A DNA stretch of 37,348 bases, taken from positions 1 to 37,348 of the forward strand of contig JAZUKI010000009.1 of assembly GCA_045643205.1 (NCBI GenBank), in the 5' to 3' direction. Both the position numbers and the translations under genes were made by a program. The notes beneath the pieces are model-generated. The model had not been told where the DNA came from. It saw only the letters and a list, made by a program, of their open reading frames with translations, and searched no databases. This stretch comes from Clostridia bacterium. Lineage in GTDB: Bacteria > Bacillota > Clostridia > TANB77 > CAG-508. How positions within the stretch are numbered: the first letter of the stretch is position 1; each line of letters starts with the position of its first letter. Positions 5,410 to 15,140 of this stretch are shown here, piece by piece.

Positions 5410-6834
5410 TTATTTCCGTAGGGTTTGTAGAACTTTTAATGCTCTCTCACTTAATAGTCCATATTTAGCTTTTTTATCTCTTTTTACAACACTCTTTTTC
5501 AAGCCAGAAGCCTCAATTTCCCCATCTGTAAGACTTGGAAGAATTCCGTAATTAGCATTCATAGGTTGAAAAGCCTCATTTTTCGAAGAAATATAGCTTG
5601 CTAGAGCGCCAATCATAGTTCTAGAATCAAATGTAATTTTGTCGAATTTTGTCGAATTTTCGAACTGTTGTGCCGCGTTTATTGCAGCTACTAGTCCAGA
5701 CGCAATTGATTCAACATAACCCTCAACTCCAGTTATTTGGCCTGCAAAATAAATATTGGTATTTGCCTTAAAATTGTATGTATTATCTAATAATTCAGGT
5801 GAATTTATAAATGTATTTCTATGCATTACACCATACTTTGTAAATTCAGCATTTTCAAGACCCGGTATCATTTGAAAAACTCTTTTTTGCTCTCCAAATT
5901 TAAGATTTGTTTGGAATCCAACCATATTATATAAGTTACCCTCGCTGTTATCTTGTCTCAATTGTACAACAGCAAATGGTCTCTTGCATGTTCTAGGGTC
6001 ATCAAATCCAACTGGTTTTAATGGTCCGAAACGTAACGTGTCATCGCCGTTTTTTGACATTATTTCTATAGGCATACAACCTGAAAAAATTTCTTTCTTT
6101 TCAAAATCATGTAAAGTTACCACCTCTGCATTATTTAGTTCGGTAACAAACTTATAATACTCCTCTTTATTCATCGGAAGATTTATGTAATCCTCTTGAG
6201 AGCTTGATAAATCAGCAGTTCTAGTCTTCCATTCTTCTTCGCTTTCATCTTTTTTCTTTTCTTGATCATATCTATTTCCATAAAAAGCAATATCAAAATC
6301 AATAGAATCTTTTTCAATAATTGGTGCTGCTGCATCATAAAAATGCAAGTCATTTTCGCCCGTTAATTTTTGAATTCCTTTAGACAATTCGTCTGATGTT
6401 AGTGGTCCTGTTGCAATAATTACAATACCTTCATTCACTGCTTTTTCAAGCATTTCAGCAGTAAATTCTTCTTTGATAATCTCAATGTTTTCCATCGATT
6501 CTATTTTTTCAGTGATCTTTTTTGAAAAAACCTCTCTATCAACTGCTAGTGCTTGTCCTGCGGGAACACTAGTTACATCAGCCGTTTTAATTAATAATGA
6601 ATCTAACCTTCTTAATTCCTCTTTTAATAAGCCACACGCATTTGTAAGTAAATTTGATTTAAAAGAATTGCTACATACAATTTCAGCTAAATCTTTATTA
6701 CTGTGTGCTGGTGAAAACTTAACAGGTTTCATCTCATATAATTTTACTTTAATTCCTCTTTTTGCTATTTGATAAGAGGCCTCGCATCCAGCAAGGCCTC
6801 CCCCTATAACAGTTATATAATCAACTTTTTGCAT
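5410..6834 (-). CDS. trmFO: Folate/FAD-dependent tRNA (uracil-5)-methyltransferase TrmFO (Gid)
   Basis: GGGLAGCEA, AEIVCSNSF, VPAGQALAVDR, LRFGPLKPVG, GVMHRNTFINSP and AGQITGVEGYVES motifs. Confidence 0.97.
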   Translation of the reverse strand: MQKVDYITVIGGGLAGCEASYQIAKRGIKVKLYEMKPVKFSPAHSNKDLAEIVCSNSFKSNLLTNACGLLKEELRRLDSLLIKTADVTSVPAGQALAVDREVFSKKITEKIESMENIEIIKEEFTAEMLEKAVNEGIVIIATGPLTSDELSKGIQKLTGENDLHFYDAAAPIIEKDSIDFDIAFYGNRYDQEKKKDESEEEWKTRTADLSSSQEDYINLPMNKEEYYKFVTELNNAEVVTLHDFEKKEIFSGCMPIEIMSKNGDDTLRFGPLKPVGFDDPRTCKRPFAVVQLRQDNSEGNLYNMVGFQTNLKFGEQKRVFQMIPGLENAEFTKYGVMHRNTFINSPELLDNTYNFKANTNIYFAGQITGVEGYVESIASGLVAAINAAQQFENSTKFDKITFDSRTMIGALASYISSKNEAFQPMNANYGILPSLTDGEIEASGLKKSVVKRDKKAKYGLLSERALKVLQTLRK

Positions 6835-6867
6835 ACTTTCTATACTTTCTATATTTTCTTATATTTG

Positions 6868-7869
6868 TTATCTTTCTTCATCATCTATGTCATTATATTT
6901 TTGTATGTATCCTTCTTCATCTACGAATTCTTCATCAGGAATAACCCAGTCAGGATTATATCTATTTTTTTCTTCTTCTTCTTTTATTTGACCTAATCTT
7001 TGTTCTGCATTATATAATTCTTGTTCTGCTATTGTAAATTCTATCTTCTCTTCAACTTGTTCGATATATTCTTCTATATTTCTTTTATATCCTGTTACTC
7101 TATTTGCTTTGTCACAAATATTTTGTAAGGTTTTTGGTTTTTCCAAAATTAATTGGCCACCCTTTTTAGAAGAATCTATTTGTCCTTGTCCAATTAATTC
7201 ACTTCTTTGTTGCATAAATTCCTTTACATCTTTTAAATCTTCTAATTCTAAATCCCATAACCTTAATTTATCATCTTGAGTTACTGTATTTATTCCTCTT
7301 ATTGTAAGATTAAACAATATATCAAACTCTTTCGCATATTCAGATCTAAGCTTATTTTGATAATCTTTTGCTATGTAGCTTTCACTATCATTCATACACT
7401 TAGCATATTTAATTTTTTTATCTTGCCAATAAAGAAGTTCTCTTGTATTTGTATATAAAGTTTTTCTATATATTATTTCTTTTTTTATTCCTGAAGTTGT
7501 TTTAAGATCATATGGAGCATTTTTTTGAATTGCATTATATCTTGTAGTCATCTCCGTACGATTATCACAAAGATCATTTTGTAATAAAGAAATATCTTCA
7601 TATATTTGTTTTTGTAATTTCTTTATTCCTTCTTGTGTATTATAACCACCTTCTTTATATATTCCATAATAATTGCCATTTAATTGTATCTCTGATTTAA
7701 TTAAATCTCTTCTAAGGCTTATTAAATGTTGACGCTTTTCTACTTCTGTTCTATAAGAATTTTCATCTTCATATGCTTTTATTTGCTCTCTTATTTTTCT
7801 TATTTTTGCTTTATATTGTTCCGCATAATTAGTATAACGATCTAATTTTGACTCTTCAAAATAGCCCAT
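6868..7869 (-). CDS. Hypothetical charged coiled-coil protein with acidic C-terminal tail
   Basis: 333-aa ORF with AGGAG RBS and own promoter; no motif recognised. Confidence 0.8.
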   Translation of the reverse strand: MGYFEESKLDRYTNYAEQYKAKIRKIREQIKAYEDENSYRTEVEKRQHLISLRRDLIKSEIQLNGNYYGIYKEGGYNTQEGIKKLQKQIYEDISLLQNDLCDNRTEMTTRYNAIQKNAPYDLKTTSGIKKEIIYRKTLYTNTRELLYWQDKKIKYAKCMNDSESYIAKDYQNKLRSEYAKEFDILFNLTIRGINTVTQDDKLRLWDLELEDLKDVKEFMQQRSELIGQGQIDSSKKGGQLILEKPKTLQNICDKANRVTGYKRNIEEYIEQVEEKIEFTIAEQELYNAEQRLGQIKEEEEKNRYNPDWVIPDEEFVDEEGYIQKYNDIDDEER

Positions 7870-7937: not shown

Positions 7938-10900
7938 TTACTCGAATAATTCCATAATTTCATCTTTGCTCAATTTGCTGATAAATGTCTCATTTGTTGA
8001 TAGCATATCATCAGCAAGTTTTGCCTTCTTTTCCTGTAATTTGTATATCTTCTCTTCAATAGAATTTTTAGTAATCAATTTATAAACTTGAACATTACGT
8101 TTTTGTCCAATTCTATAAGTTCTATCTGTTGCTTGGTTTTCAGCTGATAAGTTCCACCATGGATCATAATGAATAACCATGTCAGCCCCAATCAAGTTTA
8201 ATCCTGTTCCGCCAGCCTTAAGTGATATTAAGAAAACTTTAATGTTTTTGTTCTTGTTAAATTCATTTACTAATTTCATTCTTTCAGAAACCTTAGTTTG
8301 TCCTGTAAGTTTTAAGTATTGAATTCCCTTTTCCTTCAAACCTTCCTCAATATATCTAAACATTGATGAATAGCCTGAGAATAATAACATCTTGTGTCCG
8401 CCAGCTGCAGCATCTTCAATAATTTCCATACATTGATTAAGTTTCTTGCTACCCTCTGTATAGTTTTCTAGAAATAATCCTGGGTGACAACAAATTTGGC
8501 GAAGTCTCATTAATAATGCAAGAATTTTAATTTGGCTATTTTGAATTCCGTTAGTTTCAATTTCTTCACTAACTTGTTGTTTAGCACTTCTCATATAAGC
8601 CATATAAAGTTTTTGTTGCTCGCCTTCCATCTCATTTGTTAGTACACTAATTGTTTTTTCAGGTAGCTCAGTTAAAACTTTTTCTTTTACTCTTCTTAAA
8701 ACAAATGGCTCTATCATTTGTTTTAATCTATTCATTACTTCAGGACTATCTTCTCTAATAATTGGTGATTCAAATTGAATCTTAAACTTGTTATAAGTAA
8801 ACAAGTATCCTGGCATTATAAAATCGAAAATTGACCAAAGTTCTGCCAATGAATTTTCAATTGGTGTTCCTGTTAATGCATATCTTGTATCTGCTGTTAT
8901 TTCTTTAATTGCACGTGCATTCTTTGTTGTGTTGTTTTTAATATATTGTGCTTCATCTGCAATTAAATATCTAAATTTGTAATTGTATTTTTTATAAATA
9001 TCTAAATCTCTCTTTAATAAATCATAAGATGTTATTACGATATCATACTCAGGAATACTCTCAATTATTTTTTCTCTAACTGTTGTATCACCACTAATAA
9101 CAACGGTTTTAATATCAGGTGTAAATCTAGCTGCTTCTTCTTGCCAGTTCAAGCATAATGAACTTGGGCAAATAACTAAGCTAGGTCTCTTTTCATTTTC
9201 AGCTGTTGTATCAGAAGTTTTTAAAGAAGTATCTAGTGCGATTTGATTTCCACCTTCGATGCTGTTATTCTTTTCGCACTCTTCTATGTATGAATCAATT
9301 ACAGCTAAAACTTGAACTGTTTTTCCAAGTCCCATATCATCAGCTAAAATTCCGCCAAGCTTGTAATCATCAAGTGTTTTTAACCAATCAAATCCAACTT
9401 TTTGATACTCTCTGAAAAGTGCCTTTAATCCGTTAGGTAAAACATATTTATCAGATATTTGTCTATTATAAACATCATCAATTAATTCTTTATATTCTTG
9501 TGATTGCTTAACTGTAATCTCACTTTGTTTTAATATTTTGTCTAAGTATAAACTACGATAAATTGGAACTTGTACTTTTCCTGAAGTTAATTGTTTAAAA
9601 TCAACATTTGTTCCTTCATATAATTTCTTCAAAGCATCCAATGTTGCATTGTTCTCTAAGTCAACAAACTGTCCATTTTTTAATTTGTGATATTTTTGTT
9701 TTAAAATATATCCTTGCATAACTTCTTCAAGTTCTGCTTTATCAAAATTAAGTTCTGAAAGATCGATGCTTAATAAATTGTTTTCTATCTTTACGCCAAT
9801 AGATGACATCTTAGGTGAAATGATTTGTCTTGATTTAAAACTTTCTGTTGCCAAAACTTCATACTTTTCAATCAATTGTTCAACACCAACTTTAATAAAG
9901 TCATAAATTTTTGCTTCATCAGTTAGTACTAATTCTTTTTTATTCATATCAAGCATGAAACCGCAATCCTTCAATAAATCTAGTGCTTTAGACTCTGCAA
10001 TTACATTTCTTGAAACATCAAATGGATCTTGATCGAATGGATTAAATTCTATGCTCTCATATTTAAAATTAACATTTGCTGTTACAAAATCACTCTTTGT
10101 ATAATCCAAAAATATATTAACTTTTAAATCACTTGGTAAATATTCATCTAGCTCATATCTAGGAATGCTATCAAGAATAATTTTAGTTTCCATCTCTGGA
10201 ACTATAAGAGAATAAAGGTCTGCAAGTTCTCTCTTCTTAAAAGGAATTTCTGAAATTAAATTTACTCTAAAAGCAGATAATAATTTTAAAGTTGTTTTTT
10301 CAAATCTATTTGAACATCTAAATATTTTATTGTTCTTTAAGAAATATAAATATTCTTTTCCTTTTAGAACAGTATAATCATATACGTCTATGTTTGTAGT
10401 TAACGCATAAGCTTCATCGTTTAATTCTTTAACTTCAAATTTAATCGCTGGTTCACGATCAATAAATTCTAATCTATCTTCGCCATACTCATCTAAATAC
10501 AATGATGAATTGTTTTTCATAACTTCAAAAAACTCATCAAGTGCTGATTTTGTTAATAGTATATGTTCATCATTTAATACAGAAGGATAATATGCACTAT
10601 TATTTTCATTTGCATATTTTAAAATTTCTGCATACTTCAAAACGAAGTTTATCAATGGTTTCGACTCTTCATCAAAAGCATTAATAGAATGTATAAAATC
10701 TAATTTTTGTCCGTATTTATATTTTTCACCATTTTGCATTCTGTCATAAAATTGAGGAATGCTTTTAATTTTGTACATTTGCTTGTTGCCAATTTTAAAT
10801 TCAACTTTTAAGTTCTTTTCAAACTTATCAAAAATAACACGTGGCTCAACTCTTAGCTCCCCTGTACCTGCAAGTTTGACTTGTTGTTCTGATTGTTCCT

Positions 10901-11315
10901 CAGAATAAAACTCGCTAATCATTTGGCGATATATTCTATATTTTTCTTTATCATCTTCAATTATTTTCTTATCTTTTTTATTGTCATCAAATAACATGCC
11001 AAATTCTTTACTTTGATTGAACTTGTACGCTAAAGCTAAAATATGCTTGCATGTTCCGTATGAATCTTTGTAATAGTTGCATGTACACTTAACATCATTT
11101 AATTCGCCATCAGAAATTTCAATATATGGTTCATACGAAACATCTTCCATGTTTGCGCTTCCATATATTTTTATTTGCTTATCATCATACTTTACTCTTG
11201 TTATTGCTAACTCATTCGAAGATCCTAGATTTTTTGCTTCACTAACAAGCTTATCTGATGTGTAACGCTCTAATTCAGTTAAAACATTATCATTAATGAT
11301 CATTGTAATCTCCAT
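7938..11315 (-). CDS. SWIM zinc-finger plus SNF2-family helicase/ATPase
   Basis: SWIM CTC...CKH; LADDMGLGKT (motif I), DEAQ (II), LTGTPIENS (III), SLKAGGTGLNL (V), QATDRTYRIGQ (VI). Confidence 0.96.
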   Translation of the reverse strand: MEITMIINDNVLTELERYTSDKLVSEAKNLGSSNELAITRVKYDDKQIKIYGSANMEDVSYEPYIEISDGELNDVKCTCNYYKDSYGTCKHILALAYKFNQSKEFGMLFDDNKKDKKIIEDDKEKYRIYRQMISEFYSEEQSEQQVKLAGTGELRVEPRVIFDKFEKNLKVEFKIGNKQMYKIKSIPQFYDRMQNGEKYKYGQKLDFIHSINAFDEESKPLINFVLKYAEILKYANENNSAYYPSVLNDEHILLTKSALDEFFEVMKNNSSLYLDEYGEDRLEFIDREPAIKFEVKELNDEAYALTTNIDVYDYTVLKGKEYLYFLKNNKIFRCSNRFEKTTLKLLSAFRVNLISEIPFKKRELADLYSLIVPEMETKIILDSIPRYELDEYLPSDLKVNIFLDYTKSDFVTANVNFKYESIEFNPFDQDPFDVSRNVIAESKALDLLKDCGFMLDMNKKELVLTDEAKIYDFIKVGVEQLIEKYEVLATESFKSRQIISPKMSSIGVKIENNLLSIDLSELNFDKAELEEVMQGYILKQKYHKLKNGQFVDLENNATLDALKKLYEGTNVDFKQLTSGKVQVPIYRSLYLDKILKQSEITVKQSQEYKELIDDVYNRQISDKYVLPNGLKALFREYQKVGFDWLKTLDDYKLGGILADDMGLGKTVQVLAVIDSYIEECEKNNSIEGGNQIALDTSLKTSDTTAENEKRPSLVICPSSLCLNWQEEAARFTPDIKTVVISGDTTVREKIIESIPEYDIVITSYDLLKRDLDIYKKYNYKFRYLIADEAQYIKNNTTKNARAIKEITADTRYALTGTPIENSLAELWSIFDFIMPGYLFTYNKFKIQFESPIIREDSPEVMNRLKQMIEPFVLRRVKEKVLTELPEKTISVLTNEMEGEQQKLYMAYMRSAKQQVSEEIETNGIQNSQIKILALLMRLRQICCHPGLFLENYTEGSKKLNQCMEIIEDAAAGGHKMLLFSGYSSMFRYIEEGLKEKGIQYLKLTGQTKVSERMKLVNEFNKNKNIKVFLISLKAGGTGLNLIGADMVIHYDPWWNLSAENQATDRTYRIGQKRNVQVYKLITKNSIEEKIYKLQEKKAKLADDMLSTNETFISKLSKDEIMELFE

Positions 11316-11374
11316 AAAACAAATTTTTAGAACTAAAAATAATTGAAAAATAAATACTTCTAAACTAGTGTTAT

Positions 11375-11403
11375 ATTATATAATATTTTGTGCTATTTGG
11401 CAA
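11375..11403 (-). promoter_or_regulatory. Sigma-A promoter of the SNF2 gene
   Basis: TTGCCA-17 nt-TATAAT. Confidence 0.7.
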
Positions 11404-11414
11404 TTTTTTTGCAT

Positions 11415-11444
11415 AAAAAAGAAGCTCCGCTGTCGCAGAGCTTC
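11415..11444 (-). terminator. Intrinsic terminator of small gene 1
   Basis: GAAGCTCTGC-GACA-GCGGAGCTTC followed by TTTTTT. Confidence 0.9.
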
Positions 11445-11475
11445 TCTCGCTGGGGTGTAAATCAATGAATTTTTA

Positions 11476-11856
11476 TTAATAGTCCTGTAACGGTATAACT
11501 GTTATTCCCTGATTAATTTTTGAGAACGCATAATATTTTTCTATGTCTCTCGCAAATCTCTTGGTGGAATTTTCTGTTATTTTCCCATTCGCAGAAATTA
11601 TTTTTGGCGTTATATCTAATTCATTAACTTTATTGCCATCCTTTAATTGCAGAATAGCTTTTGGATTTCTTGAAAACCGCTTATTTTTTCCTTGTTTGCC
11701 AAGGTATCTAAAATCAGCATTTCTCAATGTCTTTTCATCATTTTTACATGTTATTGTATGACTTTCTTCCGGATAAAAAATGATTATACCTGATATCCTT
11801 ACTTCGTTTAAAAACTCAGTATTAATATCTATAATTACAGGTTTAAGAAGTTTCAT
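11476..11856 (-). CDS. Small basic hypothetical protein (126 aa), paralog 1 of a tandem family
   Basis: AAGGAG RBS, own promoter and terminator; FR..RNPKAILQLKDGNKVNELDIT aligns with FR..RNAKIIIVVKNGKNKVNLDIT of the neighbouring gene. Confidence 0.85.
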   Translation of the reverse strand: MKLLKPVIIDINTEFLNEVRISGIIIFYPEESHTITCKNDEKTLRNADFRYLGKQGKNKRFSRNPKAILQLKDGNKVNELDITPKIISANGKITENSTKRFARDIEKYYAFSKINQGITVIPLQDY

Positions 11857-11923
11857 GTTCTGCTTTCTCCTTTATTGCTCTAAAACTCCCCCAGCTATTT
11901 CCCTAAACGGTTAATATTGCGCG

Positions 11924-11952
11924 ATTATATAATATATTCTACCTTATGTCAA
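11924..11952 (-). promoter_or_regulatory. Consensus sigma-A promoter of small gene 1
   Basis: Perfect TTGACA-17 nt-TATAAT. Confidence 0.9.
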
Positions 11953-11957
11953 TTTAC

Positions 11958-11989
11958 AAAAAAAAAGAGCCAGTTGTTACTAGGCTCTT
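11958..11989 (-). terminator. Intrinsic terminator of small gene 2
   Basis: AAGAGCC...GGCTCTT stem followed by a long T-run. Confidence 0.9.
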
Positions 11990-12014
11990 CCTGCTGGGAA
12001 CGGATTTTGATTTA

Positions 12015-12401
12015 TTATAAGTTATTAGCTATTATTATTTCATCTTCCAATAACATTATATTAATCTTATTTTTTTTAATTTTTTTATATGTTTTCTGGA
12101 AAGCAGTTGGTGATATTTCACCTTCTGATTTTTTCACAAAATTCGTTATATCCAAATTAACTTTGTTCTTTCCATTCTTCACAACAATAATGATTTTTGC
12201 ATTTCGTGCGTAAGTCTGTTTAGCAATATTGCCTTTAGTTCTTACTTTCCGAAATCCTTTTTTTATCAATTGTTGCTTTTTGGCTACATCGTTTGAATCG
12301 ATTATTATTTCTGTATGGTACAGATAAACAATCTTTCCCCAGTCACATTTTGGATACCGAATATTCTCGGTCCCGAACTTTCTTACTTCTTTCTTTTCCA
12401 T
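12015..12401 (-). CDS. Small basic hypothetical protein (128 aa), paralog 2
   Basis: Start reassigned to ATG 12401 (MEKKEV...) after AAGGAGG; visibly similar to paralog 1. Confidence 0.85.
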   Translation of the reverse strand: MEKKEVRKFGTENIRYPKCDWGKIVYLYHTEIIIDSNDVAKKQQLIKKGFRKVRTKGNIAKQTYARNAKIIIVVKNGKNKVNLDITNFVKKSEGEISPTAFQKTYKKIKKNKINIMLLEDEIIIANNL

Positions 12402-12465
12402 GTTGATCCTCCTTGTTGTTTTAGAAGTAAATCCCAGCAATTAATTTTTAAAATCCGTATACTTC

Positions 12466-12494
12466 ATTATACTATATTTTCTACAAAATAGCAA
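12466..12494 (-). promoter_or_regulatory. Sigma-A promoter of small gene 2
   Basis: TTGCTA-17 nt-TATAAT. Confidence 0.8.
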
Positions 12495-12501
12495 TTTGCA
12501 T

Positions 12502-12531
12502 AAAAAAAGAAGTCGGAAATTTCCCGACCTC
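12502..12531 (-). terminator. Intrinsic terminator of small gene 3
   Basis: GAGGTCGG...CCGACTTC stem followed by T7. Confidence 0.9.
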
Positions 12532-12555
12532 CTTTTTGGCTTTAGCTATTATAGA

Positions 12556-12879
12556 TTATCTTACCAGAATTACAGTATGATCATCTTCGCTCAGAAACTC
12601 AGCCCGCAGTATTCCTGCTTTGACTTCCTTCCTAACGGTTTCAGCGACTTCTTCAGTCATCTCTCTCACATTATAGAGAGCAGAAATCTGTTTTGTCGCA
12701 TCCATCATTCCGACGTTTTTCAAATAGATATTTATGTGAGAAGCTTTCAATACTTTCACAACTTCTCCGTAATATACGGTTTCATATCCATTCTCAAGAT
12801 AGTGCTCTAACCGGCACAGCGTCGCTCCTTTCAGAGTTTCCTCTGAATAAGGAACAAATTCCACCTCAGTAATTTTCAT
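12556..12879 (-). CDS. Small hypothetical protein (107 aa), probable distant paralog 3
   Basis: GGAGG RBS; YLENGY...KASHINIYLKN..MDATKQI pattern parallels LIKKGF...RNAKIIIVVKN..LDITNFV; visibly more GC-rich than its flanks. Confidence 0.85.
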   Translation of the reverse strand: MKITEVEFVPYSEETLKGATLCRLEHYLENGYETVYYGEVVKVLKASHINIYLKNVGMMDATKQISALYNVREMTEEVAETVRKEVKAGILRAEFLSEDDHTVILVR

Positions 12880-12949
12880 TTGTACTTTCCTCCGTTGTTA
12901 AATCTACTAAGCCTATTTGCAACCTGTTACAAAAAGTAACATCCTCTTT

Positions 12950-12978
12950 ATTATAGCATATATTAAGCCTTTTAACAA
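12950..12978 (-). promoter_or_regulatory. Sigma-A promoter of small gene 3
   Basis: TTGTTA-17 nt-TATAAT with extended -10 TG. Confidence 0.75.
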
Positions 12979-12997
12979 TATCTATCTCTTATATTTG

Positions 12998-13705
12998 CTA
13001 TTTTTCCTTACTTTCTGCATTTATTGTTAGTCCTTTGCCTTCAAATTCCTTAACTTTAGCCTTTCTCTTTTCTTGCCATTCTTTTGAATTTACTACATTC
13101 AATCCAATTACAGCTGTTCCAACATTATTGTCTTTCCCAAATATTTTTATTGCCAGTTTTGTTTCTTCATGCTCACTTACAAACTTAGAATCTTGCAAAT
13201 CTTTTTTACTGTATATTTGAGTTTTAAAATCTAAATCATTTAAAAATTTCATTTCACTTTTAACTAATATTGGTGAAATCATATATATGTTATCTTTTCC
13301 AGCAAACTTAGGATTTCCTTCATTTTTTAATCTTCTTATTTTTTCTATTGCATCAAGCAAGTACAAATTAACAGTATCAAATGTTTTAGAGACTCCTCTT
13401 TCTTTCATCATTCCGTGTAAATCAACCGGCATATGCAAATGAATACTCTTCCTTCCTACACCGTATGAAAACATTTCATTAATTGGTATATGTTTTTCAC
13501 TGTTATGTTCATCCCCTTGTCTTTCGTTTAACTTCCTTTGTAAATAATTTTTTATAGAATCTTCACTATTTCCGATTTGAGAAACCATAGCCTCAATTTT
13601 ATCATCCGTTAATAAATCAATCTTGCCTATTAGTTTACTTATCTCGTTTTCGTTACTAGATGTTTGCATTGACATTAATAAATCTTTAATTTCATTTTTA
13701 TTCAA
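12998..13705 (-). CDS. Hypothetical protein (~235 aa)
   Basis: Long ORF; AGGAGG overlaps the track's GTG, so TTG at 13705 (8-nt spacing) is the likelier start; no motif recognised. Confidence 0.8.
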   Translation of the reverse strand: MNKNEIKDLLMSMQTSSNENEISKLIGKIDLLTDDKIEAMVSQIGNSEDSIKNYLQRKLNERQGDEHNSEKHIPINEMFSYGVGRKSIHLHMPVDLHGMMKERGVSKTFDTVNLYLLDAIEKIRRLKNEGNPKFAGKDNIYMISPILVKSEMKFLNDLDFKTQIYSKKDLQDSKFVSEHEETKLAIKIFGKDNNVGTAVIGLNVVNSKEWQEKRKAKVKEFEGKGLTINAESKEK

Positions 13706-13727
13706 CTTTAACACCTCCTACGCCTTA

Positions 13728-13756
13728 ATTATAGCACATTTCAGGGGTTGTTTCAA
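13728..13756 (-). promoter_or_regulatory. Sigma-A promoter of the 235-aa orphan
   Basis: TTGAAA-17 nt-TATAAT with extended -10 TG. Confidence 0.75.
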
Positions 13757-13762
13757 TTTGTT

Positions 13763-14040
13763 TTACATTAGGTTTTTAAGATGCCCATTTAGTATCTCTT
13801 GGTATGCCTTTTTTAATATCTCGTTGTTTTCATGTTCTGCAATTTCTTTCATTGTGTATTCAATCTTTTTATCTTCTTCATCTACAAATTCTATTTTATG
13901 TACAAACATAATTTCATGATATTTTGAACCATCTGATTTAAAAAAATTCTCAATTGTTGATATATAATTTCAATGTCTTTTCCTAGTTTTTCTTTAATCT
14001 CTCTTTTAATTGTATCTTCTGAGTTCTCTCCAATTTCTAC
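13763..14040 (-). pseudogene. Truncated, frameshifted Nudix hydrolase remnant
   Basis: Hand translation gives VEIGENSEDTIKREIKEKLGKDIEI (Nudix box lacking its N-terminal part), then in another frame ISTIENFFKSDGSKYHEIMFVHKIEF...; no start codon or RBS. Confidence 0.75.
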
Positions 14041-14106
14041 AATTGTATCATTCTTTGTATGTTATTCAAATAGGTAATATTGACCTTCGGGTTATGCGCT
14101 CTCAAC

Positions 14107-14146
14107 AAAAAAATCGCTACAATTCAACTAATTGTAACGATTTTTT
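14107..14146 (-). terminator. Intrinsic terminator of the por operon (possibly bidirectional)
   Basis: AAAAAATCG.TACAATT/AATTGTA.CGATTTTTT inverted repeat. Confidence 0.85.
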
Positions 14147-14171
14147 ATTTCTTTTTTTATATCTCTGTTTC

Positions 14172-15140
14172 TTATTCAGCTTTCTCTTCTTTTGCTTTGT
14201 TTGTCATTTCTTCTTTAGCTAAAAGTTCATTCCATCTCTTGTCTACTTCTTTTTGGAATTCTTCAATCATCCATTCGTTTCCTGGTTTGAATAAATGTTT
14301 GAATCTCTTTTGTTTCTTTAACCATTCGCTTATAGGAACTTTGTTGGCTGGCTTATAATTGATGTGATATACACCATCTACAACTTCATATAATGGCCAG
14401 TAACATGTTTCAACAGCAAGCTTGTTCATTTCCATTAAGTCTTCTGTTGGATATCCCCATCCTCTAGGACAAGGAGCTAATGCATTGATAAATGCTGGTC
14501 CATCTGTATAGATTGCTTTTTCTGCTTTCTCATATAAATCTTGGAATACTCCAATTGCTGCTGTTTGGCATACATATGGAATATGATGTTGTACCATGAT
14601 TTCTGTTAAGTCTTTTCTATTTTGCATCTTTCCAGGAATAACTGATCCTGCTGGAGATGTTGTTGTGTCTGCAAATTGTGGTGTTGCTGATGATCTTTGA
14701 ATACCTGTGTTCATGTAGGCTCCATTATCATAGCAAACATAAGTTAGGTTGTGTCCTCTTTCCATTGCTCCAGAAAGTGATTGAATTCCTATATCGTATG
14801 TTCCACCATCACCACCAAATACGATGAATTTTGTATCTTTATCTGCTGGCAATTTGCCTTGTTTCTTCATTGATTTATAAGCCGCTTCAACTCCTGAAGC
14901 TGTTGCTGATGCACACTCAAAAGCTGTGTGTATATATGAATCTGACCATGCTGTATATGGATAAATACATGTTGAAACTTCCATACATCCTGTTGCATTT
15001 GAAACTACAACATGATCTTCAGGTTTTACTGCTCTTAATACCATTCTAGCTACTGCTGGTGCTCCACAACCTGCACACATTCTGTGTCCTGCTGTGAATC
15101 TAGATGGTTTATTTGCTACTACTTCTTTTACGTTATACAT
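14172..15140 (-). CDS. porB: Pyruvate/2-oxoacid:ferredoxin oxidoreductase beta subunit
   Basis: CAGCG, TGC, TPP-binding GGDGGTYDIG...YDNGAYMNTG and APCPRGW motifs. Confidence 0.95.
   Translation of the reverse strand: MYNVKEVVANKPSRFTAGHRMCAGCGAPAVARMVLRAVKPEDHVVVSNATGCMEVSTCIYPYTAWSDSYIHTAFECASATASGVEAAYKSMKKQGKLPADKDTKFIVFGGDGGTYDIGIQSLSGAMERGHNLTYVCYDNGAYMNTGIQRSSATPQFADTTTSPAGSVIPGKMQNRKDLTEIMVQHHIPYVCQTAAIGVFQDLYEKAEKAIYTDGPAFINALAPCPRGWGYPTEDLMEMNKLAVETCYWPLYEVVDGVYHINYKPANKVPISEWLKKQKRFKHLFKPGNEWMIEEFQKEVDKRWNELLAKEEMTNKAKEEKAE

Follow-up and report, generated by a model that had tools for sequence, protein, structure and literature searches.

Predicted pairing between 5' and 3' untranslated regions in three small orphan genes of a Clostridia bacterium: a candidate interaction of the hbs type

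Three small genes and their complementary ends

The window analysed here is a whole contig (JAZUKI010000009.1, 37,348 bases) of a Clostridia bacterium, the genome of which has 1.0 Mb, 28% G+C and 10 contigs and is coded G000. On the minus strand, between a porB-like gene of the 2-oxoacid:ferredoxin oxidoreductase type and an SNF2/SWIM helicase gene, lie three small genes (genes 1, 2 and 3, or g1, g2 and g3). In each of them, blocks of the 5' untranslated region (UTR) are complementary to blocks of the gene's own 3' UTR which stand next to the terminator, an arrangement discussed here as a candidate for the type of interaction described for hbs of Bacillus subtilis. The genes g1 and g2 are paralogs, with 33% identity over 75 amino acids (aa). 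Each of the three has a strong Shine-Dalgarno (SD) sequence, its own promoter-like site of the sigma-70 type and its own intrinsic terminator (Table 1), and each would form a transcription unit by itself, with a strong promoter at the head, when start sites are placed from the promoter-like sites. The latter are located upstream of the 5' blocks in all three cases. A sequencing run labelled as RNA contained 0.28 of the sampled words and another run 0.05, which is no evidence of expression.

Table 1. Features of the small-gene array, its neighbours and comparable loci (positions in the window unless another contig or locus is named; nt, nucleotides; bp, base pairs)
Feature	Positions	Strand	Description
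Promoter-like site, gene 3	12950-12978	-	TTGTTA, 17-nt spacer, TG-TATAAT
5'-terminal hairpin, gene 3	12923-12943	-	GAUGUUAC-UUUUU-GUAACAGG; starts about 7 nt past the -10 box
5' blocks, gene 3	12901-12913	-	GGCUUAG (outer, 12907-12913) and GUAGAUU (inner, 12901-12907)
Gene 3 (g3)	12556-12879	-	107 aa, acidic, orphan protein
3' blocks, gene 3	12538-12557	-	AAUCUAU (12551-12557, overlapping the stop codon) and CTAAAGCC (RNA: CUAAAGCC; 12538-12545)
Intrinsic terminator, gene 3	12506-12534	-	13-bp stem, -15.4 kcal/mol, followed by a T run
Promoter-like site, gene 2	12466-12494	-	TTGCTA, 17-nt spacer, TATAAT
Helix A, 5' strand, gene 2	12450-12458	-	ACGGAUUUU; begins 8 nt past the -10 box, at about the first transcribed base
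Helix B, 5' strand, gene 2	12428-12440	-	UUGCUGGGA plus the AUUUA extension named by the sequence-only reading
5' blocks, gene 2, as first named	12428-12440	-	TTGCTGGGA (12432-12440) and GATTTA (12428-12433)
Gene 2 (g2)	12015-12401	-	orphan protein, 128 aa, basic; paralogous to gene 1
3' blocks, gene 2	11991-12014	-	UAAAUC, then A' AAAAUCCGU (12000-12008), then B' UCCCAGCAG adjoining the terminator
3' partners, gene 2, as first named	11991-12014	-	TAAATC (12009-12014) and TCCCAGCAG (11991-11999)
Intrinsic terminator, gene 2	11964-11990	-	from the terminator search
Promoter-like site, gene 1	11924-11952	-	TTGACA, 17-nt spacer, TATAAT; 12 of 12 matches
5' blocks, gene 1	11882-11895	-	GCUGGGG (outer, 11889-11895) and GAGUUUU (inner, 11882-11888; one G.U pair)
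Gene 1 (g1)	11476-11856	-	126 aa, orphan protein
3' blocks, gene 1	11449-11473	-	AAAAUUC (11467-11473), 11 nt unpaired, CCCCAGC (11449-11455)
Intrinsic terminator, gene 1	11418-11447	-	-20.5 kcal/mol
g4	12998-13714	-	238 aa, upstream of the three small genes, no family match
porB-like gene	14172-15140		2-oxoacid:ferredoxin oxidoreductase type
SNF2/SWIM helicase gene	7938-11315	-	domains given in the text
porB-SNF2 islet, window	11316-14171
porB-SNF2 islet, L031 (G216)	5485-7344
porB-SNF2 islet, L037	1304-3185
g3 homolog in L031	5682-6065		30% identity to g3
Small gene on contig C5 (G000)			109 aa; ACACUUUGCACUUU with AAAGUGCAAAGUGU, 14 bp without mismatch, -19.8 kcal/mol, in contact with the terminator; leader hairpin before it
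Small gene on contig C3 (G000)			95 aa; UCCGGUC with GACCGGA
Gene on contig C7 (G000), locus L050	34855-35508	-	217-aa membrane protein; UUUGCUGGG with CCCAGCAGA, same B motif

A sequence-only reading of this DNA had proposed complementary blocks at both ends of the three messages, and all of them were located there. The gaps between the paired 3' blocks are of 11, 9 and 6 nt in genes 1, 2 and 3, respectively, as in the proposed range of 6-11 nt, and the terminator was likewise found to follow at once, its stem beginning 1, 0-1 and 3 nt after the outer block. The 3' UTRs before the terminator have a length of only 20-45 nt. On the 5' side, the blocks start at -40 from the start codon in g1 and at -39 or -40 in g2, and in g3 they stand 22-34 nt before the start codon (12879), after the 5'-terminal hairpin. 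The SD sequences follow the 5' blocks at a distance of 12-25 nt, and both these and the start codons are outside the long-range helices, the longest single one of which has at most 11 bp in g1-g3. In the minimum-free-energy folds of the predicted full transcripts, the closing helices are formed by these blocks in three of three genes, which bears out the claim that each open reading frame (ORF) is enclosed by the pairing of its own UTRs next to the terminator.

In gene 2, the segment between the 3' blocks, previously described as a bulge, actually belongs to a second helix, since it pairs with the predicted first transcribed bases. Two helices were defined for the g1/g2 family in this way: helix B, GCUGGGA with UCCCAGC, and helix A, ACGGAUU with AAUCCGU. 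Gene 1 lacks helix A and carries the inner GAGUUUU/AAAAUUC helix in its place. The order of the strands, A, B ... A', B', is the crossing order of a pseudoknot, while an inverted repeat would be mirrored.

The encoded proteins (107-128 aa) are hydrophilic and have no close company in the databases. In a word-indexed search of 5.8 billion proteins g1, g2 and g3 each matched themselves alone, and an HMMER profile search of 1.84 billion representatives returned the two queries plus four weak matches, the best short protein having E = 2.7e-4. No match to g1 was found in the 200 other genomes of the taxonomic family, and a four-sequence profile matched two of the 43 other genomes of the genus, namely G216 and one in which the match (E ~0.009) was full of stop codons. 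For the small proteins nothing rose above the cut-offs in Pfam, PHROGs, PADLOC and NCBIfam, and Rfam gave no match in the window. The structural model of the g1/g2 family suggests a globular beta-rich fold (predicted local distance difference test score, pLDDT, of 82); a fold search with it gave best values of E = 0.11 in PDB and E = 0.045 in BFVD, and no usable match in the ESM Atlas. The g3 model, with a pLDDT of 47, was too poor for such a search.

Chance tests, relatives and other genes of the genome

Genes for the genome-wide screens were called crudely, by an ORF-based caller. In a flank test, RNAduplex was applied to 65 nt upstream against 35 nt downstream of the 310 genes with intergenic DNA on both sides. 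The three genes took ranks 3, 4 and 5 of the 310 (-17.4, -16.7 and -16.3 kcal/mol), energies which were equalled in 0.19%, 0.32% and 0.39% of ~3100 non-cognate trials; that three genes of such rank adjoin each other is improbable in itself. Pairing is not a general trend of the genome, as the cognate mean over the 310 genes was -7.33 vs -7.16 kcal/mol for non-cognate pairs (Mann-Whitney p = 0.23). A second test was anchored at the terminators of 99 monocistronic-like units. There, g1 and g2 reached -17.1 and -16.5 kcal/mol (null fraction 0.0017 each) and g3 reached -11.1 kcal/mol (null fraction 0.037), and 5 of the 99 units, g1 and g2 among them, were at or below -14 kcal/mol, a level attained by 1.1% of the non-cognate pairs. 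This restricted test took the place of a terminator-anchored scan over 2 kb upstream, which was dropped because the best-of-2-kb noise (null mean -13.5 kcal/mol) swamped the signal. In agreement with the sequence-only reading, neither screen revealed the layout at housekeeping genes, and the genome's own HU gene (-8.2 kcal/mol, null fraction 0.2) showed no convincing 5'/3' interaction.

The same site was then compared in relatives, of which G216, a species of the genus, is the nearest. In G216 the N-terminus of the SNF2 protein is 90% identical to that of the window, and the porB-SNF2 interval (L031) has flanks of 88-90% DNA identity. Its interior holds three diverged cassettes: one g3 homolog (h3) and two cassettes of the g1/g2 family (h2a and h2b, 24-36% identity to g2); no g4 homolog was found in this interval. 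A metagenome scan anchored on the start of the SNF2 gene gave three more contigs (L037-L039) with further variants, among them another g3 homolog (~30% identity) at the same site in L037. Overall, protein identities between cassettes across the site are of 23-36%.

In the folds of all 10 complete cassettes (from G000, G216, L037 and L039), a 5' block pairs with a 3' block lying 0-3 nt before the terminator. The expectation that homologs would keep the complementarity was thus borne out, with thin covariation in the g1/g2 family. Helix B has 7-10 bp in all seven cassettes of this family and helix A 9-11 bp in six of the seven (g1 being without it), giving 17-21 bp for A and B combined, and two more 3' UTRs (that of L038 and that of the L039 h2a cassette) retain both 3' blocks. 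Since a whole-cassette MAFFT alignment misaligned the g1/g2 blocks, the helices were tallied by hand-anchoring on their cores. One column of helix B is compensatory, G:C in g1 vs A:U in the other six cassettes, as is one of helix A, U:A in g2 vs A:U in the h2b cassettes. The covariation earlier claimed among the three genes of the window is therefore largely reduced to the GCUGGG/CCCAGC core which the paralogs g1 and g2 inherited, and one compensatory pair stands. G.U pairs on the sense strand occur in the inner helix of g1, in helix A of the L037 h2a cassette and in the contig C7 gene, and no internal A.C pair was seen in the helices compared. As regards g3, the homologs of G216 and L037 also have its 5'-terminal hairpin, with one compensatory change from C:G to U:A, and in g3 and its homologs alike a helix adjoins the terminator, formed by different blocks (GGCUU-AG or GGUU vs CGCAAU with AUUGCG).

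The h2a and h2b leaders (L031 6170-6245 and 6775-6860, and their L037/L039 equivalents) also show an extra local hairpin after block B, CACAC-A-GUGUG in h2a vs CAUGCA-UCA-UGCAUG in h2b. Next to this hairpin comes, on its 3' side, a conserved ACUAGUUUU, which is present in the leader of the SNF2 gene as well.

The layout is found again in other small genes of G000 (Table 1). The contig C5 gene has two tandem homologs in G216 (50% and 38% identity), where ACACUUUUUCAU(U) pairs with (A)AUGAAAAAGUGU; compared with these, four columns are changed on both strands with Watson-Crick pairing kept and none broken. For the contig C3 gene, the pairing is extended to 11 bp in G216 and reads UGUCGGU with ACCGACA in G211, which amounts to two double changes. 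The contig C7 gene uses the B motif of the g1/g2 family, and its only counterpart in G216 is a weak, repeat-driven match, so that no clear homolog is available. In total, at least four unrelated protein families in one 1-Mb genome have a helix adjoining the terminator, which agrees with the earlier claim that the layout is common to unrelated genes. Moreover, intergenic 7-mers of the B type lie mostly in such pairs (GCTGGGG in 2 of 2 copies, GCTGGGA in 3 of 4, TGCTGGG in 4 of 5).

Two further features of these loci were recorded. Each of the two C5 paralogs of G216 (locus L048, G216:C21:12195-14724, minus strand) is provided with a separate extended -10 promoter (TGGTAAAAT), leader hairpin, 5' and 3' blocks and terminator, which makes this locus a second small array of closed-loop cassettes. 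The contig C7 protein is membrane-anchored, with Pro/Thr-rich tandem repeats (TAPEPTSTPTPTPTVT units), and is unrelated to g1 and g2.

Probable decay control and its alternatives

In general, experimentally supported cases in which the 5' UTR of a bacterial message pairs in cis with its 3' UTR are a handful, hbs, icaR and RNAIII, in the published accounts used here (PMC5737220, PMC7821165), with hilD merely named in the review as a 5'/3'-UTR interaction affecting degradation (PMC7821165). For B. subtilis hbs, the study of Braun, Durand and Condon from 2017 (PMC5737220) describes a block of 14 nt behind the leader hairpins which pairs with 14 fully complementary nt just 5' of the terminator (-19 kcal/mol), an interaction which shields RNase Y sites of the leader and slows decay. 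Mutation of either side raises RNase Y cleavage in the leader or quickens decay (PMC5737220; review PMC7821165), and compensatory mutations bring stability back partly (PMC5737220). According to the review, the interaction was reported as not conserved among close relatives (PMC7821165).

The sequence-only reading had recognised no described family; nevertheless, the layout matches this published interaction (PMC5737220). As in hbs, monocistronic messages for small proteins have a leader block 5' of the SD sequence which pairs with a block before the intrinsic terminator. Here, complementary blocks are present in both UTRs of one unit, the 3' block standing before the terminator and the 5' block between the SD sequence and either a leader structure or the 5' end, and the pairing is kept in relatives for both helices of the g1/g2 family and for the C5 (four columns) and C3 (two columns) genes, the comparison of g3 with h3 being ambiguous. 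The contig C5 gene has 14 bp, the length given for hbs, and values of -11 to -17 kcal/mol were obtained for genes 1-3. Above curated cut-offs, the genome encodes RNase Y and RNase J, as does that of the hbs host, and RNase III. Differences exist too: unlike hbs, these proteins are unrelated to HU, the helices are bipartite with a bulge, the g1/g2 family adds a crossing helix over the first transcribed bases, the layout turns up repeatedly within one lineage, in several orphan genes without relationship to each other, and the case is known from sequence alone. These messages are best described as a set of putative hbs-type members, the variant feature of which is the two crossing helices, one taking in the 5' end.

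Because of the hbs geometry, the RNase Y, J and III genes and the arrangement of the 5' ends, the helices are read as elements of decay control, and it is considered fairly probable that they constitute an hbs-type long-range interaction of the two UTRs in cis, which controls mRNA decay. In such a mechanism, a 5'-UTR block placed before the ribosome-binding site, and after the 5' end or a 5'-terminal hairpin, would pair with the 3'-UTR block abutting the terminator hairpin; the message would thereby become a closed loop, with the possibility for the long-range helix to stack on the terminator stem. The g1/g2 family would use the two helices A and B, with A including the first transcribed bases (except in g1). 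In the g2 type the 5' end itself would be drawn into the 3' UTR, and in g3 and the contig C5 gene a local 5' hairpin would be followed by the long-range block. Pairing would keep RNase J and RNase Y away from the 5' end and from the AU-rich, single-stranded leader, and complete, correctly terminated transcripts alone would become long-lived. Beyond the observed blocks, their positions, conservation and compensatory changes, the helices would be expected to form in vivo, and their effect would be stabilisation rather than repression.

Several points weigh against this interpretation. It had been held that shuffled UTRs should not pair equally well, and this stood for g1 and g2, with 9 and 23 of 1000 dinucleotide shuffles of the own UTRs matching the observed energy (p = 0.009 and 0.023), and failed for g3 (180 of 1000, p = 0.18), the only one of the three that is not significant by shuffling. 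By sequence statistics alone, the case is good for g1 and g2 and weak for g3. Furthermore, at least six closing pairs were predicted in 20 of 64 control units, being common in AU-rich messages; closing pairs at most 3 nt from the terminator were found in 8 of the 64 units, g1-g3 and the contig C5 gene counted in, and of five such control units inspected at least two depend on promoter DNA which is probably untranscribed. The blocks of the g1/g2 family are almost invariant despite strong protein divergence, with only two covarying columns in a hand-anchored alignment, and this near-invariance would fit recognition of the sequence by a factor equally well as pairing. Since different blocks pair in g3 and h3, the homology of their helices appears ambiguous. 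A nested fold cannot hold helices A and B together, and these may form a pseudoknot or may alternate, both being conceivable. Promoter-like sites alone serve to place the starts of transcription upstream of the 5' blocks, and a stabilising rather than destabilising effect is presumed by analogy with hbs. Finally, at four loci of other genera which hold distant homologs of the contig C5 protein, the leaders are short and pairing is absent in all four; therefore the device would seem to be bound to the lineage rather than to the protein family.

An alternative in the opposite sense, taken to be unlikely, is that the helices repress, the full-length message being an RNase III substrate or an inactive fold until it is processed, in the style of icaR or of hok and aapA. 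In fact, RNase III is encoded in the genome, and a helix stacked on the terminator, or A and B combined, would approach a duplex length usable by this enzyme. The hok/sok and aapA/IsoA systems are characterised by hydrophobic peptides of less than ~60 aa, an antisense RNA and a 3' processing required for activation. The messages described here resemble them in that the full-length form is closed by end-to-end pairing, which was the basis for the earlier analogy with type I toxins. That analogy had to be abandoned, since the proteins are longer, soluble and, in the g1/g2 family, modelled as globular and beta-rich, the start is not sequestered, and no antisense partner was identified (no Rfam match in the window; antisense promoter-like matches were not examined further). 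The icaR work is reportedly that of Ruiz de los Mozos et al. in 2013. In Staphylococcus aureus icaR, according to the review's summary (PMC7821165), a UCCCC motif of the long 3' UTR pairs with the ribosome-binding site, blocking translation and making a site for RNase III, so a duplex cut by this enzyme has a precedent. An anti-ribosome-binding-site 3' UTR of this type was discarded here, as the 3' blocks pair upstream of the SD sequences, which stay free, and the 3' UTRs are short compared with the long one described for icaR (PMC7821165). Nor does any single helix of g1-g3 exceed the 11 bp mentioned above. The S. aureus RNAIII/hld molecule is similar in that it encodes a small protein and that a short long-range helix links its 5' region with its 3' region; unlike these messages, it is large and regulatory, with many hairpins, and its end helix, in the review's description, is not set against a terminator in repeated cassettes (PMC7821165).

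A somewhat less likely possibility is that the blocks are sequence-specific sites for a protein or RNA, either the encoded protein or a common factor recognising GCUGGGA and ACGGAUU, with complementarity being secondary. Such sites would account for the near-invariance of the A and B blocks across cassettes with so little protein identity, as well as for the GCUGGG/CCCAGC motif bracketing the unrelated 217-aa gene and for the intergenic 7-mer copies, mostly in such pairs. However, the g3, C5 and C3 families use quite different blocks in the same layout, and those of C5 and C3 change with their complementarity kept, as expected of pairing and not of a fixed motif. Why a factor should need a site together with its exact complement would also be left unexplained.

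Far less probable is an action of the blocks in DNA, as inverted repeats ending small mobile or recombining cassettes in a hypervariable islet, which had also been suggested as a minimal mobile cassette. The islet does look replaced between close species, and common junction sequences exist (T run, ATGC, -35 box). Nevertheless, the blocks lie between the -10 box and the terminator, so that such repeats, being inside the unit, would leave out both promoter and terminator; their sequences differ between families; and the A and B blocks of gene 2 recur at the 3' end in the same order, not mirrored. The G.U pairs would be mismatched at the level of DNA, none of the adjacent genes codes for a recombinase or transposase (the neighbours being the porB-like and SNF2 helicase genes), and the motif was found in G216 alone among the species genomes and in zero viral contigs. 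For these reasons a mobile cassette with inverted repeats was rejected. Chance complementarity carried along by paralog duplication is the least likely account of all, as the common descent of the g1/g2 core, the shuffling result of g3 and the frequency of end-to-end pairing in AU-rich RNAs are opposed by the ranks of three adjacent genes, the helices abutting terminators in unrelated families and the pairing, with compensatory changes, kept in other species.

The islet and its wider meaning

The porB-SNF2 islet has flanks of 86-90% DNA identity between the window and G216 or L037, and inside it the cassette proteins fall to the low identities given above. Among the islets compared (window, G216 and L037), g4 is present in the window alone. 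The islet of the window looks replaced rather than gradually diverged, because those of G216 and L037 differ by just ~11%. The g4 gene occurs in 19 of 201 genomes of the taxonomic family (G000 counted), in varied contexts and with no small-gene cassettes beside it, and its true start is likely the TTG at 13705, as judged from the N-termini of homologs. It has no terminator of its own, and therefore its transcripts should read into gene 3.

Two side observations concern the neighbourhood. The stretch of ~350 nt between the oxidoreductase operon terminator (14111-14143) and the g4 promoter (13760-14110, minus strand) contains short frame-broken ORFs only, for example one of 48 aa at 13763-13909, and is possibly what is left of a decayed gene. 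In the SNF2 helicase, a SWIM zinc finger at the N-terminus is accompanied by the bacterial SNF2-associated domain. The helicase gene probably belongs to the core, despite strong PADLOC matches to the models of the DpdE and ZorD helicases, because it was found in 21 of 21 genus genomes searched (G000 counted).

A wider and quite speculative reading, regarded as improbable, is that the layout is a closed-loop chassis common to the fast-evolving orphan genes of the lineage. Its parts, equally doubtful, would be a strong promoter, an intrinsic terminator and a leader of which both the first bases and a second block pair with the 3' UTR, in pseudoknot order against the terminator, with closure serving as a completeness check which would make full-length messages nuclease-resistant and productive. 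If this were true, a hypervariable islet of new genes would be expressed highly and independently of its surroundings, and a general, so far undescribed post-transcriptional device would exist, of which hbs would be one isolated known instance. The literature found on interactions of the hbs and icaR types consists of single-gene cases only, in a search which could not exclude a published genome-wide survey.

The value of these results is limited by the fact that the case is computational, the organism uncultured and the proteins orphan. The g1/g2 family offers a compact object of ~500 nt, with two helices of 8-10 bp, in which the pairing of a 5' end with a 3' UTR could be studied against RNases J, Y and III. 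Moreover, the presence of the layout in at least four unrelated families of small genes, conserved across species and with compensatory changes, suggests, instead of a peculiarity of a single message, a reusable way to express small accessory genes.

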